64,000 nt of DNA from Paracoccaceae bacterium (lineage in GTDB: Bacteria > Pseudomonadota > Alphaproteobacteria > Rhodobacterales > Rhodobacteraceae): positions 1,438,209 through 1,502,208 of the forward strand of contig OZ254079.1 in NCBI GenBank assembly GCA_965267475.1. Direction: 5' to 3'. The notes under the pieces were generated by a model, which had not been told where the DNA came from, made no database searches, and saw nothing but the letters and a program-made list of their open reading frames with translations. Positions 52,834-59,933 of the stretch are shown here, piece after piece. Numbering within the stretch: position 1 is the stretch's first letter; every line of letters starts with the position of its first letter. The position numbers were made by a program, and so were the translations under genes.

Positions 52834-53669
52834 CAGGGATGGGCTGCCGCTTCGACGGCCCGGAGACGGATGAGAAGCCCTGCCATGTCGTCCAGATGCA
52901 CCATATTCGGCCCGTCCGACGGCGCATTGTCCGGATCGTCATGGGTTTCAACGAAAAGCGCCGCGCAGCCCACTGCCACGGCCGCGCGCGCAAGAGGTGG
53001 CACCATGGTCCGGTCGCCGCCGGTCGACGTGCCCTGGCCACCTGGTTGCTGCACCGAATGGGTGGCGTCGAAAACAACCGGATACCCGGTTTCGGCCATT
53101 TGCGGGAGTGCCCGGAAGTCAGAGACCAGAGTGTTATAGCCAAAGGACGTGCCCCGTTCGCAGAGCATGATCTGGTCATTGCCGGTCGAGGCGATCTTAT
53201 CGGCCACGTTCCGCATATCCCAGGGCGCAAGAAATTGGCCCTTCTTCACATTGACTGCCTTGCCGGTGGCACCTGCAGCCAGAAGGAGATCGGTCTGGCG
53301 ACACAGGAAGGCCGGGATTTGCAGGACATCGACGGCTTCGGCGACAGGAGCGCAGTGATCGGGCAGATGAACATCGGTCAGAACCGGGCACCCAAAGGTT
53401 TGGCGAACCTCGGCCAGGATGTTCAAACCCTCTTCCATCCCGATCCCACGCGCGGCACCGATCGAGGATCGGTTTGCCTTGTCGTAGCTTGATTTGTAGA
53501 TCCAGGGGATGCCTGCGGCGCCAGCGGCCTTGGCGATCTCTTCCGCCACATGCATGGCATGGTCGCGGCTTTCAATCTGGCAGGGGCCAGCGATCAGCGC
53601 GAAGGGCGAAGTGTTGGCGATCCGGATGTCGCCGATCTGCACGGTTTTCTGGGGCACTGGTTCCGTCAT
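52833..53669 (-). CDS. kdsA: 3-deoxy-8-phosphooctulonate synthase
   Basis: 278 aa from [47 protein letters not shown] and [11 protein letters not shown] motifs. The stop shares 1 nt with the downstream start. Confidence 0.9.
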
Positions 53670-54105
53670 CCGAGCCTCTGGATTGGGTCGAGCCGGAAAA
53701 TGCGGCAGGACGTAGGGATTTGCAATGCGATCTGACAGGGAGACGGTGGAGACCCGGACCGCCAAGACGACGAATCAACCCGGCTGTGTGCGTGTTTCCG
53801 TGCCGTACCAGCAGGCGCGGTTGGGTCACGTATCCACACGCGCCTGTCAGGGGTGCTAACATTTCGGACACGCCACGCGGTTTTGCGCTTCTTTTTGCCA
53901 GCCCACCCAAGAGAATGTGACCCGCGCCAAATGGAAAGTCGTTCAAAAACAATAGCTTGAGGAAGCTCACAATTAGGTCAGCAAAGCGGAGCTTTTTCCC
54001 AAGAACCTGTGATTGGTCAGCGACCGGCAACTTGTCCTAGGCGTCCAGTGTCGCCGTATCTCTGCGGCACCTTGACCCAAGACAATGCAAAAGAGGACCG
54101 ATCCA

Positions 54106-54411
54106 ATGTCGAACACACCCAAAACTCTCGCCGTCGCTGGCGCCGTTGCTGCCGCTCTCGCATCTTACGCCACGCTTCCCGCAAACGCGCAGGCACAGGA
54201 AAAGTGCTTCGGTGTTTCGCTTGCAGGCGAAAACGACTGTGCCGCTGGCCCGGGCACAACCTGCGCCGGTACGTCGACCGTCGACTATCAGGGCAACGCC
54301 TGGACACTGGTTGAAGCTGGCACTTGCGCCACGATCGAGTTGCCGCAGATGGCTGACGGCACCGAGCGCATGGGCTCGCTCGAAGCTCTGGAGCGTGACC
54401 TCCCGGCATAA
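54106..54411 (+). CDS. bufA: DUF2282 / BufA1-type bufferin precursor peptide (signal-peptide-bearing RiPP precursor)
   Basis: RBS aagagga lies 8 nt upstream. Sec signal [30 protein letters not shown]. The core [43 protein letters not shown] carries the four conserved Cys. Confidence 0.85.
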
Positions 54412-54419
54412 GCTTTCCC

Positions 54420-54447
54420 GGGTCCCGGGGTGCGATCTCCGGGACCC
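54420..54447 (+). promoter_or_regulatory. intercistronic hairpin between precursor and modification genes
   Basis: 9-bp GC stem gggtcccgg / ccgggaccc with a 10-nt loop. It sits 9 nt after the bufA stop and 25 nt before the bufB start. Confidence 0.6.
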
Positions 54448-54471
54448 ACCCTAATAAGATGAAGGTGCCCC

Positions 54472-55332
54472 ATGCTCGACGCAGCTCAACAGCCCTTTGG
54501 ACATCTGCCAAATCGGCCCGGCGTCGGCTATAAGGCACAGCATTTCCAGGCCATCGTGGACGACCCCGCACCGGTCGAATGGCTTGAGGTTCATGCCGAG
54601 AATTACATGGGCGACGGGGGCCGCCCGATTGCCCAACTGCGCCATCTGGCTGAGCGTATGCCAATCTCGGTGCATGGCGTCGGCCTGTCGATTGGTGGCG
54701 AAGGCCCGCTGGACTCCGAGCATCTGGCACGGCTGAAGCACCTTGTCGGATGGGTGAACCCTGCAAGTTTCTCAGAACATCTTGCCTGGTCGACCCATGA
54801 CACGGGGTATTTCAATGATTTGTTGCCTCTCCCTTACACGACGGCGACCCTGACCCGCGTTGCCGAGCATATCGATCAAGTGCAAGAGACGCTTCAGCGG
54901 CGCATGCTGCTCGAGAACCCGTCGCATTATCTCGCCTTTGCCGAAAACGAGATGAGCGAGATCGAGTTTCTGAACGAGATCGTCAAACGTACCGGTTGCG
55001 GGCTGCTGTTGGATGTCAACAACGTCTTCATCTCGGCCACGAACCAGAAAACGGATCCGGTCAGCTATATCGACGCATTTCCGCTGCACGCCGTGGGCGA
55101 GATCCATCTGGCGGGTCACGATGAGGATGAGGACGACGAAGGGGCGCCGCTTCTTATTGACAGCCACGGGCGCGAAGTCGCTGACCCGGTCTGGGTGCTT
55201 TTTGCGCATACGATCGAAAAGGGCGGCGCGAAGCCGTCGCTGATCGAATGGGATACGGATGTGCCGGATTGGCCTGTCCTGGCGGCCGAAGCGGCGCGGG
55301 CCAACGACATTCTGATCGGGGCGCCCGCATGA
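54472..55332 (+). CDS. bufB: DUF692 / MNIO-family (MbnB-like) peptide-modifying iron enzyme
   Basis: VGYKAQH, LEVHAENY, VHGVGLSIGG, FSEHLAWS, LLENPSHY, LLLDVNNV, IHLAGH, LIDSHG and IEWD, the full set of TIM-barrel DUF692 motifs. Confidence 0.88.
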   Translation: MLDAAQQPFGHLPNRPGVGYKAQHFQAIVDDPAPVEWLEVHAENYMGDGGRPIAQLRHLAERMPISVHGVGLSIGGEGPLDSEHLARLKHLVGWVNPASFSEHLAWSTHDTGYFNDLLPLPYTTATLTRVAEHIDQVQETLQRRMLLENPSHYLAFAENEMSEIEFLNEIVKRTGCGLLLDVNNVFISATNQKTDPVSYIDAFPLHAVGEIHLAGHDEDEDDEGAPLLIDSHGREVADPVWVLFAHTIEKGGAKPSLIEWDTDVPDWPVLAAEAARANDILIGAPA

Positions 55333-56081
55333 CGGTCCACCAGGCGGATTTCCTGGCGGCGGTTCTGTCGCCTGAGGCAGAAGTGCCTGCCGGATTGGTG
55401 GACCCCGAGGGCGCGCCCACGACCAAGCGCTTCAATGTGTATCGAAACAACGTGGCGGTTTCCCTGACCGAGGCGTTAGAGACGGCTTTTCCAGCCATTT
55501 CAAAGCTAATCGGCGACGAGAATTTCAAGCGCGTCGCGGGCGTTTTTCTTCGCCAACATCCGCCTTCATCGCCGGTAATGATGCTTTATGGCGAGGCTTT
55601 TCCCGGGTTCCTCGATACGTTCGAGCCGCTGAAGCATCTGGGTTATCTGGCGGATGTGGCGCGACTGGAACAGGCGCTACGCCAGTCCTATCACGCTGGC
55701 GATGCGAGCCCTGTTGACCCGGCGGCCTTGCAAGCCCTGTCGCCCGCTGCCTTGATGGCCACGCGGTTTGATCTGGCACCCGCCGTTCAGGTCTTGCAGT
55801 CACCCTGGCCAGTTTACGCGATCTGGGCGTTTAACATGGTGGATGGCGCTCCGAAGCCCATCGCCAAGCCGCAATCGGTTTTGATCACCCGGCCCGAATT
55901 TGATCCGGTGGCGCAGCCCGTAGGCAGGGGCACAGCGCATCTGACCGAGGCGCTTCGGGCGGGCCTGACATTGGGCGAAGCGCTTGAGACCGCTGCCTCA
56001 GACCCGACTTTCGATTTTACGACCGCGCTGGGCCAGTTGCTTTCAGGTGCAGCCATTACTGACATAAGGACAGACCCATGA
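55329..56081 (+). CDS. bufC: DUF2063 partner protein (BufC-like, precursor-recognition subunit)
   Basis: ATGA overlap with bufB. KRFNVYRNNVAVSLTEALETAFPAISKLIGDENF is the typical DUF2063 N-terminal signature. Confidence 0.82.
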   Translation: MTVHQADFLAAVLSPEAEVPAGLVDPEGAPTTKRFNVYRNNVAVSLTEALETAFPAISKLIGDENFKRVAGVFLRQHPPSSPVMMLYGEAFPGFLDTFEPLKHLGYLADVARLEQALRQSYHAGDASPVDPAALQALSPAALMATRFDLAPAVQVLQSPWPVYAIWAFNMVDGAPKPIAKPQSVLITRPEFDPVAQPVGRGTAHLTEALRAGLTLGEALETAASDPTFDFTTALGQLLSGAAITDIRTDP

Positions 56082-56677
56082 CCCCATTGATCCGGCTCCA
56101 AGAAGCCATCTTTCGCCCTTTCGAGCGTTTGGAACCGCTGGTCATGCCGCTTCTGGCCCGGCTCGTCTTTGCAGGGGTCCTGTTTCAATACTTCTGGGCC
56201 TCGGGCCTGACCAAGCTGGGCGACGGCATTTTCGGGTTTCTGTCGCCGTCCACTGGGGCTTACGCGCAGATCTTCCCGAAGAAGGCCGAAGAAGTCCTAT
56301 ACGATGTGACGCAATTCAGCCTGTTCGAGAAGACGGTGATTTTTGCTGGGACATGGGCCGAGTTCATCTTGCCGGTGCTTCTGGTCATCGGTCTTTTTGG
56401 CCGGTTCGCTGCGTTGGGCATGATTGGTTTCGTGGTTGTCCAAAGCCTGACGGATATCTTTGGCCACGGCGCAGACGCGGAAACGATCGGTGCCTGGTTC
56501 GACAAAGCCTCGGGTTCCTTGATCCTCGATCAGCGCGCGTTTTGGGTCTTCCTTCTGCTTTATGTGGCGGTACGGGGCGCTGGGGCCTTGTCGGTGGACC
56601 GGTTTCTATTGGGCCGGCGATCCGCGGCATCTGACCTGTCGCACGAGATCGGCGGGACTGAGAGTGTCCTGAAATAG
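56078..56677 (+). CDS. DoxX family membrane protein
   Basis: ATGA overlap with bufC. Four TM segments, LLARLVFAGVLFQYFWASGLTKL. Fourth gene of the conserved operon. Confidence 0.8.
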   Translation: MTPLIRLQEAIFRPFERLEPLVMPLLARLVFAGVLFQYFWASGLTKLGDGIFGFLSPSTGAYAQIFPKKAEEVLYDVTQFSLFEKTVIFAGTWAEFILPVLLVIGLFGRFAALGMIGFVVVQSLTDIFGHGADAETIGAWFDKASGSLILDQRAFWVFLLLYVAVRGAGALSVDRFLLGRRSAASDLSHEIGGTESVLK

Positions 56678-56700
56678 ACCCAAGACCAGCTAAGCGAAGC

Positions 56701-56727
56701 GCCCGCCATATTGGCGGGCTTTTTTTT
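56701..56727 (+). terminator. rho-independent terminator of the buf operon
   Basis: gcccgcc-atatt-ggcgggc followed by tttttttt. Confidence 0.85.
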
Positions 56728-56794
56728 GCGGCGCGGCAAGGATTTCCTTTCATGCCGGCAGCGTCTTTCGCCTTGGAGTTGTGCGTTCCGTAAC

Positions 56795-56810
56795 TTAAGA
56801 CCATCTTAAC
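56795..56810 (+). promoter_or_regulatory. CtrA-type box TTAA-N7-TTAAC upstream of bphP
   Basis: TTAAGACCATCTTAAC, a perfect match to the alphaproteobacterial CtrA consensus. It ends 34 nt before the bphP ATG. Confidence 0.45.
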
Positions 56811-56844
56811 GGTTTCGCGGCCATTCACATAAAATCGAGGGAAT

Positions 56845-59391
56845 ATGGCCTTAACGGACGACGAAATTCGCGAAGCGCTTGAGACTTGCGCGTCGGAACC
56901 CGTGCACACACCCGGTGTTACACAGCCGTTTGCCTGCCTTATGGCGATTGATGCCGAGACGAACGCCATCACCCATGTCAGCGAGAATTGCCAAGATATC
57001 CTTGGCTATCATCCGTCATCCATGCTGGGCAAGGACCTGCTGGAACTTGTTGGACGCGAAATCTGGCACGACTTGCAGAATACCTTGTTTCAGCCGGACG
57101 CGTCCGAAACCATGCAGCCGGTAGGCGAGGTGACGTTGAACGGGCGCGACCTGCATTTTGCCGCCTGCCAGTATGGACCACGCCTCATCGTCGAGTGGGA
57201 GCCGGCACGACTAGCGGCTTTTGAGGGTTCCAATGCCCTAAAAACAATTGGGTTTCTGATCAGCAAGGTCGAGTCGTGCAAAACTGAGGAGGACTTGTTC
57301 TCGACCACTGTGCGGCTGATGCGAAACTTAACGGGCTATGACCGCATCATGATCTACCGGTTCGACCGGGACTTTAACGGCGAAGTGCTCGCCGAAGAGC
57401 GAAAAAGCCGGTTAGAGAGTTTTCTGAACCTGCGCTTCCCGCATTGGGACATTCCCGAACAGGCGCGGGCGATGATGTTGAAATCGCCGCTTCGGTTCAT
57501 CAGCGATGTGGATCAGGCACCCGTTCCATTGATTGCAAGGGATGATGATCCCCAACCGCTGGATATCAGCCACGCGGCGTCACGCGGCGTTTCGCCCATC
57601 CATTTGCAATACCTGCGCAACATGGGGTCGCAGGCGACATTGACGCTGCATATCGAGTCCGACGGCGCGCTTTGGGGGATCATTTCTTTCCATCACTCGT
57701 CTCCGCGCGTTCCAGCGCCAGATCTGCGCGAACTTCTCAAACAGTTCCGGCATGTGTTTTCGTCGAAACTGCGGGTTCTGCGCCAGGACGCAAGAATTGG
57801 TCTGATCGCTCGGGTCGACGCGCTGAAAGATAGGTTTCAGGCCGAGATCGAAACAGTTCGTGGGTTTGAGGACTTCGCCACATCGGTGCTTGAAATCCTG
57901 GATGCCGATGGCCTTGCACTGACTGAGGATGGCGGCACGCGGGTCTTTGGAACCGTTCCTGACGAGCCACTCACCAAGCACGTGTTCAACCTGCCGATGG
58001 ATCGTAACGCGCTGATGAGTTTTGATAACTTGGAGAAGGAATTCCCCGGATTTTCAAAGGCGTTCAATGGTTGCGCGGGCGCGCTGGTCTGCGCGTTCGA
58101 ACCTGCGCGAAGACTTGGCATATTCCGAAAGGAGCAGTCGCGCGAAGTCAACTGGGCCGGAAATCCGGAAAAGACGATTGAGAACCACGAAGGTCGCAAC
58201 CGAATTTCGCCGCGGGGATCCTTTTCAACATATCTGGAAGTGGTTCGGGGCTTTTCGGCACCTTGGTCGGATGAGGCGCTTTATTTCGCGAGCCGCATCT
58301 GGACATTGGTGAACACGATCGAGCGTCAAGAGCTGGCCAAGGCCATGACGCACCAGCAAAAGATCATGATCGATGAGCTTAATCATCGCGTTCGCAACAT
58401 CCTGACGTTGATCCGATCGGTATCTGAGCAGTCGCGCCGGGCCAGCGCGGGTTCTTCGCAAGGCTACGCCGATGCCCTTGAAGACCGAGTCCAATCGCTG
58501 GCGGCGTCTCACGATCTTGCATCCGCAGGTCTGGCGGATGCGGTGTCCATTGAAAAGCTGATCCGGCTTGAGTTCGAACCCTATGGGTCGGATCCGGACC
58601 GCGTACAGATCGCCGGTCAAGGTGCATCGATCCGACCGGAAGCGGCGCCGATTTTCACCCTGGTTTTGCATGAACTCGTGACGAATTCGGTGAAGTACGG
58701 AGCGCTGTCGGATGCTCGGGGCGGTGTGGAGGTCACCTTGTCCGAGCAGGATGACGGTGTGGAGTTGACCTGGACGGAAAGCGGTGGCCCAGCCGTTGTC
58801 GAGCCTAAAACACTGGGGTTCGGTATCAACCTGATCCAGAAGGCGATCCCCCATGAACTGGGGGGCAGGGCCGCGCTGTCGTTCGCCGAAACGGGGGTTC
58901 GGGCCACATTCTTTCTGCCGTCCCGGGTTCTGGGCGAGACCTTAGACGTGACCCAATCCCCCAACACGGCCGCGGCCAATGCATCGAAGACGGCCACGGA
59001 GTTCCAAGACGTTTTGTCGGAAGCCACCTGCCTTATCGTTGAAGATAATTTCATCATTGCCGAAGGCCTTGGGGCCCAGCTTCGCGATTTCGGCATTGGC
59101 GGGGTCGAGACGGTTCCAAGCGTGGAAGCTGCCCTGGATTTTCTGGCCGATCAGATGCCGACCTTTGCCATCCTGGATGTCAATCTGGGTGGCGGGCAAA
59201 CCAGTCTGCCGTTGGCAAGCAATCTCTCGGATGCAGGCGTGCCTTTCCTCTTCATGTCAGGATACGGTGACAGTGCACATTTTGAAGGCCGGTTTGCAGA
59301 TGTTCTGAAGCTGACCAAACCGGCGAAGCCAGACGAAGTTTTCAGCGCAATTTCGGAAACCCTGGGCGCAACAGGCGACGGCAGATCGTGA
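56845..59391 (+). CDS. bphP: bacteriophytochrome: PAS-GAF-PHY photosensory core + HWE/HisKA_2 histidine kinase + receiver
   Basis: N-terminal Cys in LETCASEPVHTPGVTQPFA. GAF motifs YDRIMIYRFDRDFNGEVLAEE, FPHWDIPEQARAMM and SPIHLQYLRNMG. H-box ELNHRVRNILTLIRSV. C-terminal REC (LIVEDN...ILDVNL...LTKP). Confidence 0.88.
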   Translation: MALTDDEIREALETCASEPVHTPGVTQPFACLMAIDAETNAITHVSENCQDILGYHPSSMLGKDLLELVGREIWHDLQNTLFQPDASETMQPVGEVTLNGRDLHFAACQYGPRLIVEWEPARLAAFEGSNALKTIGFLISKVESCKTEEDLFSTTVRLMRNLTGYDRIMIYRFDRDFNGEVLAEERKSRLESFLNLRFPHWDIPEQARAMMLKSPLRFISDVDQAPVPLIARDDDPQPLDISHAASRGVSPIHLQYLRNMGSQATLTLHIESDGALWGIISFHHSSPRVPAPDLRELLKQFRHVFSSKLRVLRQDARIGLIARVDALKDRFQAEIETVRGFEDFATSVLEILDADGLALTEDGGTRVFGTVPDEPLTKHVFNLPMDRNALMSFDNLEKEFPGFSKAFNGCAGALVCAFEPARRLGIFRKEQSREVNWAGNPEKTIENHEGRNRISPRGSFSTYLEVVRGFSAPWSDEALYFASRIWTLVNTIERQELAKAMTHQQKIMIDELNHRVRNILTLIRSVSEQSRRASAGSSQGYADALEDRVQSLAASHDLASAGLADAVSIEKLIRLEFEPYGSDPDRVQIAGQGASIRPEAAPIFTLVLHELVTNSVKYGALSDARGGVEVTLSEQDDGVELTWTESGGPAVVEPKTLGFGINLIQKAIPHELGGRAALSFAETGVRATFFLPSRVLGETLDVTQSPNTAAANASKTATEFQDVLSEATCLIVEDNFIIAEGLGAQLRDFGIGGVETVPSVEAALDFLADQMPTFAILDVNLGGGQTSLPLASNLSDAGVPFLFMSGYGDSAHFEGRFADVLKLTKPAKPDEVFSAISETLGATGDGRS

Positions 59392-59933
59392 CACGACGTT
59401 TGGACAATCGGCATTTGCTGAAAACCGCAACATCGCAGGTGCATGCCGACACCGAACGGCTTTGGACCTCGGATGGTGTGTTCCGGGACCAGGGCGTGTA
59501 TTTTGGCTGGCTCGGTGGAATGCTGGTTGTTCATGCGCGGCTTGGGTTACCGGCAGCACGGATGCTTGGGAGCAAACCCTATTGCGAACAGGAAAAGGCG
59601 CGGGCAGCGGCTATTGCGGAGGACCTGGGTCACGTTTTGCCTGTGATACCCGTTGCAGGGAACAAGTCGGAAAGCTGGGCCTGGGGTGTCCAATATTCGG
59701 TTAGCGGCGCCGCGTTGGGCGCAAGCCATTTGCTTAGATCCGACCGGTTGGATGGTTCTTGGCCCCGGGCCTATCTTGACGCGATGGCGGGTTTTGCCCG
59801 GTCCGGCGGGTTGCGAGATTTTCTTACTGCCTTGAACGCACAGGACCTTGATCACGGGCAGGCGGTGGCAGGCGCCCGGGATGTCTTTCAGGTTCTTCAG
59901 GACGAAACGACTGTCTCAGAGAAGGCGGATTGA
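59388..59933 (+). CDS. bphO: heme oxygenase (biliverdin-producing, BphO-like)
   Basis: GTG start overlaps the bphP stop (GTGA). LKTATSQVHADTE matches the LRxxTxxxHxxxE proximal-His helix. About 180 aa. Confidence 0.75.
   Translation: MTRRLDNRHLLKTATSQVHADTERLWTSDGVFRDQGVYFGWLGGMLVVHARLGLPAARMLGSKPYCEQEKARAAAIAEDLGHVLPVIPVAGNKSESWAWGVQYSVSGAALGASHLLRSDRLDGSWPRAYLDAMAGFARSGGLRDFLTALNAQDLDHGQAVAGARDVFQVLQDETTVSEKAD

Follow-up and report, generated by a model that had tools for sequence, protein, structure and literature searches.

A compact group of four genes in a 64,000-nucleotide stretch of DNA from a Paracoccaceae bacterium (contig OZ254079.1; the whole stretch is called the window here) raises the question of what these genes make together and which signal they answer. 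We consider it very probable (roughly 88%) that this locus is a bufABCD bufferin biosynthetic operon of the Buf1 type, belonging to a Rhodobacterales bacterium. The bufferin 1 system was characterised in 2024 (PMC11626156) and surveyed across thousands of genomes in 2025 (PMC12452194), and every defining feature of a Buf1-type cluster in these two studies that can be tested on sequence is present in the window. In Buf1 of Caulobacter, 5-thiooxazoles arise from the central two cysteines, a disulfide links the outer two, and the finished peptide chelates copper in the periplasm (PMC11626156). An earlier interpretation of the window, referred to here as the sequence-only reading, had described this ribosomally made peptide with post-translational modifications (RiPP) correctly in substance, as a periplasmic, copper-binding product with thiooxazoles (PMC11626156). 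Our analysis shows what the four genes are, how they are arranged as an operon, how far they are conserved and which fold BufC has; the chemistry, export, metal binding and physiological role discussed below are proposed by analogy with the characterised Caulobacter vibrioides Buf1.

The four co-directional genes span positions 54106-56677 of the window, on the forward strand as are all window features described here. The first, bufA (54106-54411, 101 aa), encodes a BufA1 (DUF2282) bufferin precursor and is preceded by the Shine-Dalgarno sequence AAGAGGA (54091-54097), seen in the sequence 8 nt ahead of its ATG. It is followed by bufB (54472-55332, 286 aa) for a multinuclear non-heme iron oxidase (MNIO, DUF692) acting as bufferin maturase, bufC (55329-56081, 250 aa) for a DUF2063/HvfC_N partner protein with a C-terminal alpha/beta domain, and bufD (56078-56677, 199 aa) for a DoxX-family membrane protein. 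ATGA start/stop overlaps join bufB to bufC at 55329-55332 and bufC to bufD at 56078-56081, intergenic gaps do not exceed 60 nt, and a single intrinsic terminator lies 3' of bufD (56701-56727), with an 8-bp stem at 56701-56719 that includes seven G-C pairs, a 3-nt loop and T8. By this layout bufABCD is predicted to be a single transcription unit. These coordinates confirm the four co-directional genes, the ATGA chaining of the last three and the strong terminator reported initially. The start codons chosen are also those of the public gene calls for these proteins (P0001, 101 aa, and P0271, 250 aa, both 100% identical) and are consistent with the N-termini of homologues. A scan of one genome per species gave 80 Rhodobacterales loci as relatives, with BufB at 66-78% identity. 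The operon was found in all 80, complete wherever the contig extends far enough, and a bufA orthologue at 61-90% identity was recognised in 79.

BufA matches PF10048 (DUF2282, for which newer Pfam labels use 'BufA1') with 83.7 bits and E 8.8e-24, the cutoff being 22.4 bits. Its cysteines, Cys34, Cys45, Cys53 and Cys74, follow the pattern C-x10-C-x7-C-x20-C; the x13/x7/x21 spacing given by the sequence-only reading was a miscount. The actual spacing is identical to that of the Caulobacter BufA1 core (Cys12/23/31/52) and recurs exactly in 114 of the 150 best among the 1034 representative clusters matched by BufA. Neighbouring residues also agree with the positions described for Caulobacter (PMC11626156), namely an Asp before Cys II, an Ala after Cys III, and a Trp that stands 13 residues past Cys III and is followed 8 residues on by Cys IV. 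Homologues of BufA at 81-86% identity are named 'BufA1 family periplasmic bufferin-type metallophore' by NCBI, and this name must come from a rule other than an NCBIfam model, since a search of the NCBIfam models with a threshold as loose as E 1 gave no match to BufA. Comparison of the BufA sequence with solved structures returned signal-peptide constructs only (E ~0.3). In a structure model built with only close homologues as input, residues 31-35 and 65-70 form strands and residues 73-76 a short helix. This topology equals that published for Buf1, but the model is of low confidence, with a predicted local distance difference test (pLDDT) score of 50.

At its N-terminus BufA has Lys6, a hydrophobic stretch at residues 8-22, which is the sole hydrophobic segment of the protein, and two overlapping AxA sites. 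On these features BufA carries a Sec-type signal, comprising residues 1-28 or 1-30. A cleavable Sec-type signal had been proposed before and is supported here, but the cut then chosen, AQA/QEKC, is better regarded as the alternative to ANA/QAQEKC. The latter is more likely since, among the 79 relatives, Ala is conserved at positions -8 (68/79) and -6 (73/79) relative to Cys I and much less so at -4 (47/79).

A tail of 27 aa follows Cys IV. This segment had been singled out as a long acidic C-terminal extension, a description that loses its point on comparison: in the 150 best matching representative clusters the tail has a median length of 22 aa and an interquartile range of 17.5-32, within which the window tail falls. 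A G-S-L-like motif is found in 78 of 113 representative clusters and an RDxP-like ending in 24 of 113. The whole tail, ELP..ADGT.R.GSLE.L.RDLPA, is 60-90% conserved in Rhodobacterales, in the 79 of 80 relatives whose bufA could be recognised, and among close homologues P80, M82, D84, G85, R88, G90, L92, R97, D98 and P100 are invariant. As judged from these alignments, the tail is a clade-typical extension of a family-wide segment marked by the GSL motif, and not exceptional. Because it is conserved, a role in binding is suggested, and recognition by BufB and BufC would be the obvious guess. The signal peptide is dispensable and recognition involves the core (PMC11626156). In some BufA proteins of Roseicyclus and Loktanella (L021, L033, L052, L055) the tail is lengthened by an 'EAEGYAGL' insertion and by 10-25 more residues past RDLP. 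Two further proteins, P0198 (421 aa) and P0225 (585 aa), are long bufferin-domain fusions in which an N-terminal BufA1 domain including an RDLPP tail is followed by several hundred unannotated residues.

The maturase is assigned at the level of an equivalog. BufB matches PF05114 (DUF692) at 352.7 bits (E 1.4e-105), and the NCBIfam model for MNIO_BufB, NF050167, at 383.4 bits with a cutoff of 310, covering 2-261 of its 262 profile positions. Scores are below the cutoffs for HvfB (NF003818, 248 vs 360 bits), MbnB (TIGR04159, 45.7 vs 325 bits), ApyH and ChrH. A solved DUF692 protein, 3BWW, is matched at E 3e-46. H103, E148, D181, N184, H212, D230, H232 and E259 of BufB are the same as the aligned residues in 3BWW and in MbnB chains, and H68 is identical to its counterpart in 3BWW, the only structure with which it was aligned. 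These conserved His/Glu/Asp/Asn motif positions would be the iron ligands, as in MbnB structures.

BufC matches PF09836 (DUF2063) over residues 5-95 at 87.5 bits (E 7.2e-25), and its homologues are named 'HvfC/BufC N-terminal domain-containing protein' by NCBI. Its sequence had no match among solved structures, and an AlphaFold2 model was obtained at pLDDT 92.1. The best Foldseek matches of this model are TglI (8hci_A, template modelling score 0.64), the partner of the MNIO TglH, and the DUF2063 protein NGO1945 (3dee), with probability 1.00; MbnC is a weak match. In this confident model BufC resembles the MNIO partner proteins TglI and NGO1945. The RiPP recognition element (RRE) of a lasso-peptide system (5v1v) matched the model at E 5.5 only, RRE-like character not having been separately scored. 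BufD is, by its sequence, a divergent DoxX with about four hydrophobic segments: it passes PF07681 (DoxX) narrowly, at 24.8 bits with a gathering score of 23.6 (E 3.4e-5), and a DoxX match was found in all 27 BufD orthologues scanned. The DUF2282, DUF692, DUF2063 and DoxX identities of the sequence-only reading therefore hold, with hidden Markov model matches that are all far beyond chance. Its assignment of the product to the BufA1 class of bufferins is likewise supported by the precursor profile, the Cys register, the BufB equivalog, the DUF2063 partner, DoxX and the operon itself.

Comparison with known systems points in the same direction. The founding system, buf1 of Caulobacter vibrioides (CCNA_03363-03366, bufA1B1C1D1; PMC11626156), has the same four genes in the same order, and shares with the window operon a DUF2282 precursor with a Sec signal, the MNIO with its DUF2063 partner and DoxX, the x10/x7/x20 Cys spacing and the flanking Asp, Ala and Trp positions. 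The two precursors differ in the distance from the cleavage site to Cys I (3-5 residues in the window, 11 in Caulobacter) and in the tail after Cys IV, which has 27 aa ending in an alphaproteobacterial RDLPA motif in the window and 16 aa in Caulobacter. The gold-induced genes (gig) operon of Cupriavidus metallidurans and its homologues in Legionella and Bordetella have the same Buf1-type architecture of four genes (PMC11626156); these operons are metal-induced or controlled by BvgAS. HvfABC of Haemophilus influenzae, which makes oxazolin (Buf_EGKCG), and the Fontimonas fontiphorin system likewise combine an MNIO with a DUF2063 partner and, optionally, DoxX, and have Sec-exported precursors and copper-binding thiooxazole products (PMC13097082). 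Their precursors have repeated EGKCG motifs and not the DUF2282 fold, whereas BufA of the window has a single EKC and no repeats; the HvfB score given above and an HvfC score of 47.6 bits for BufC (cutoff 142) also place the operon outside HvfABC. Methanobactin biosynthesis by MbnABC is similar in that an MNIO and a partner protein modify Cys residues of a ribosomal peptide to give a copper chelator. MbnA, unlike BufA, is a short precursor with a leader peptide and no Sec signal, the chemistry is of the oxazolone/thioamide kind, and the product is secreted for copper acquisition. With the MbnB score of BufB far below cutoff, no MbnA-like gene and a weak fold match to MbnC, the window operon does not belong to this group.

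On the Caulobacter model, BufA would be made as a 101-aa precursor whose central Cys45 and Cys53 are oxidised by the cytoplasmic iron enzyme BufB and its partner BufC, each Cys in a four-electron oxidation to a 5-thiooxazole. Sec would export BufA, signal peptidase would cut after ANA (residue 28) or AQA (residue 30), and the Cys34-Cys74 disulfide would form in the periplasm. The resulting protein of ~7.3-7.5 kDa may chelate Cu(I)/Cu(II) 1:1 and in this way buffer excess copper. BufD would be an accessory protein, unnecessary for modification. A mass shift of -4 Da is expected for each modified Cys, and of -10 Da in total once the disulfide is counted (PMC11626156), rather than the -4 Da per modified Cys pair stated at first.

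Within the operon, a GC-rich stem-loop (54420-54447) of 11 pairs with a 6-nt loop and no T-tract after it was found by folding the spacer between bufA and bufB. Strong stem-loops of unrelated sequence occupy this spacer in 77 loci; their longest helix has a median length of 11 bp, their median z is -2.6 vs shuffles, and only 12 have a T-rich tail. Since the structure is conserved and the sequence is not, the hairpin probably has a role as RNA, most likely by making the mRNA for the precursor more abundant than that for the enzymes, as happens in other RiPP operons. A search of Rfam over 53600-56900 (E up to 1) gave no known RNA family. Tandem bufA genes, which have been noted for the family (PMC12452194), precede bufB in three relatives (L006:9255-10000, L019:9258-10000 and L066:9255-10000), and each tandem copy has its own stem-loop after it.

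Several points weigh against the bufferin reading modelled on Caulobacter. There, buf1 is driven by sigmaF through the promoter GTAACC-N16-CGAA, with NrsF as the anti-sigma factor (PMC3511200, PMC11626156). Unlike Caulobacter buf1, the window operon has no adjacent sigF-nrsF. These regulators tie buf1 to copper in Caulobacter, and no homologue of them occurs anywhere in the 64-kb window; nor is GTAACC-N16-CGAA present in the bufA promoter. Ten open reading frames scanned between 49.6 and 63.6 kb included no sigma factor, anti-sigma factor or metal sensor, as had been noted earlier for the adjacent genes. Most of the operator conserved in relatives has been lost from the window copy, so the inducing signal could differ. 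The homologous gig operon of Cupriavidus is a minor copper defence only (PMC11626156), family members fused to MerC make other metals possible (PMC12452194), and the structure model of BufA is of low confidence. An adjacent sigF-nrsF pair is present in part of the Buf1 clusters and does not define them, just as the DoxX gene is frequent and not universal.

Among the 80 relatives, sigF-nrsF occurs together with a sigmaF promoter in four loci only. In L002, L050, L056 and L060 (e.g. L050:8161-9418, minus strand) a divergent gene for an extracytoplasmic function (ECF) sigma factor and nrsF (PF06532, 172 bits) stand beside bufA, and GTAAC-N16-CGAA lies upstream of bufA in exactly these four. The same four loci keep one TCAC-N6-GTGA palindrome just upstream of the sigmaF promoter.

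Most relatives instead carry a full double palindrome, 2x[T(C/G)ACG-N4-CGTGA], ~80-120 nt upstream of bufA (L003-L080, e.g. L018:9520-9552), for which a Ruegeria example is CTGACGGGGTTGTGAGACACGGGCTCGTGAAT. Its proximal core, C[AC][ACG]-N6-GTGA-N-T, was matched in 60 of 80 upstream regions scanned. The 80 comprised 78 loci of relatives together with L081, L082 and the window, which is itself one of the 60. Across 1.39 Mb of flanking DNA the element occurs almost nowhere else. Its end lies about 30 nt short of a TA(G/C)(G/C)nT box and it is placed to overlap the -35 region, a layout that fits an activator-dependent promoter as far as can be judged from position. The sites of CRP/FNR, the CusR box, the MerR-type spacer operator and LysR T-N11-A are mismatched with the palindrome in half-site order or spacing. 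No regulator gene is conserved near the operon in relatives, where the conserved neighbours are thrS and an ArsC-family gene. A literature search on DUF2282 expression in Rhodobacterales gave nothing useful.

The window itself scores below threshold for the whole double palindrome. One half-site is retained, the proximal right one (CTGTGATTGG, 54007-54016), as a core match in a block conserved in the closest loci, L081, L082 and L001; relatives do not share the sequence of the window's 19-nt spacer. A putative -10-like hexamer of the bufA promoter, TAGGCG (54038-54043), corresponds to the TA(G/C)(G/C)nT block found 27-30 nt after the GTGA anchor across relatives; a sigma-70 consensus scan did not call it, and L081 carries CTATGC at its position. 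A small stem-loop after this box (54050-54072, core pairs 54053-54058 with 54063-54068, z = -2.9) lies at the inferred 5' end of the transcript. In many relatives a hairpin of differing sequence occupies the same place, at a median z of -1.3 over 54 sequences, which is weak evidence, and its arms covary between genera (ATCGCC/GGCGAT, ACCGC/GCGGT, GTCGC/GCGAC). This hairpin may be a stem-loop at the 5' end of the mRNA. L081, the operon found to be closest, with a BufB that is 88% identical, has the same reduced upstream region, with the proximal half-site, the -10-like box and the small 5' stem-loop.

The position of the window operon is also uncommon. In 69 of 80 relatives the operon follows thrS, and in most a convergent ArsC-family gene comes next. 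The window operon is not at this position and has kdsA and a gene for a pyridoxal phosphate-dependent enzyme upstream. Downstream of it, at 56845-59391, is a gene for a fusion of a bacteriophytochrome (PAS_2-GAF-PHY), an HWE histidine kinase and a receiver. Translationally coupled to this gene is a 181-aa open reading frame (59388-59933), which had no Pfam or NCBIfam match and by its position could encode a divergent heme oxygenase. L081 is not linked to thrS either, and follows genes for a PAS_2 protein and a receiver protein (L081:5055-6440). The surroundings of three other non-syntenic loci, L013, L023 and L061, look heterogeneous. Since the PAS_2-type neighbours of the window and L081 are not orthologous, with 28% identity over 96 aa and positions on opposite sides of the operon, the link with photoreceptor-like genes may be a coincidence.

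These observations bear on an alternative with the same chemistry and another job or trigger. The Rhodobacterales thiooxazole metallophore would then answer a signal other than copper through SigF, such as another metal, oxidative or sulfur stress, or light-linked stress, under a regulator that binds the double palindrome. We regard this as unlikely. The palindrome core over the -35 region in 60 of 80 upstream regions, the absence of sigF-nrsF nearby and its restriction to four loci speak for it, as do the link of DoxX proteins with oxidative and sulfur stress (PMC12452194) and the bacteriophytochrome kinase or PAS_2 and receiver proteins adjoining the window and L081 copies. Against it, genes for SigF-NrsF may lie in other parts of these genomes, the phytochrome-type genes next to the two copies are non-orthologous and on opposite sides as described, and the copper-binding residues and their register are fully conserved. 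A further reading is doubtful. It holds that in Rhodobacterales an undescribed regulator other than SigF-NrsF binds the double palindrome at -35, that the clade-specific tail is a functional follower, serving enzyme recognition or a periplasmic partner, and that the window copy and its closest relative have relocated and shed the operator, their phytochrome-type neighbours hinting that they answer to something else, for instance light or oxidative stress.

The same relocation could be taken as decay, the operon having left the thrS locus, lost its operator and ceased to be usefully expressed. The position away from thrS and the ArsC-family gene and the operator reduced to one half-site would suit such a silent copy, which we nevertheless consider very unlikely. 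None of the four reading frames is broken or truncated, no invariant residue has been lost, and the operon still has its Shine-Dalgarno sequence, -10-like box, intergenic hairpin and terminator. The G+C content of the operon (60.3%) is near that of the window (61.1%), so there is no sign of foreign DNA. The same reduced upstream region in L081 argues for a maintained variant rather than decay.

It is also very unlikely that BufB installs oxazolone-thioamide pairs, as in methanobactin, in place of 5-thiooxazoles. Both products have the same mass, and oxazolin and related MNIO products were first assigned as oxazolone/thioamide (PMC11252979). Yet nuclear magnetic resonance of Caulobacter Buf1 supports the thiooxazole (PMC11626156), BufB is far below the MbnB cutoff (46 vs 325), and in 2025-2026 oxazolin was revised to a 5-thiooxazole and the bufferin product reaffirmed as one (PMC13097082; 10.64898/2025.12.15.693703). 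That gene 1 encodes an integral membrane protein and not a RiPP precursor, as the title 'Predicted integral membrane protein' of PF10048 in the Pfam copy used would have it, can be dismissed, given that its only hydrophobic segment is the N-terminal signal (8-22) with conserved AxA sites after it, that published experiments, mass spectrometry among them, show a cleaved and soluble peptide of the periplasm for the family (PMC11626156), and that newer Pfam labels call PF10048 'BufA1'.

With a Buf1-type bufferin operon as the preferred reading, the window operon is an ordinary member of a well-described and very widespread family, and its close homologues are already named in databases. Beyond correct annotation its significance is small, adding one more marine alphaproteobacterium to the thousands with a bufferin cluster. 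The minor novelties, namely SigF-independent regulation through an operator, the intergenic hairpin and the relocated copy, are clade-level leads and not properties of this locus. In the abundant marine Roseobacter group, bufferin regulation appears to use a conserved operator unrelated to the sigmaF system, and a conserved stem-loop stands between the gene for the precursor and those for the enzymes. Copper handling by Roseobacter-group bacteria is relevant to coastal and algal-associated environments.

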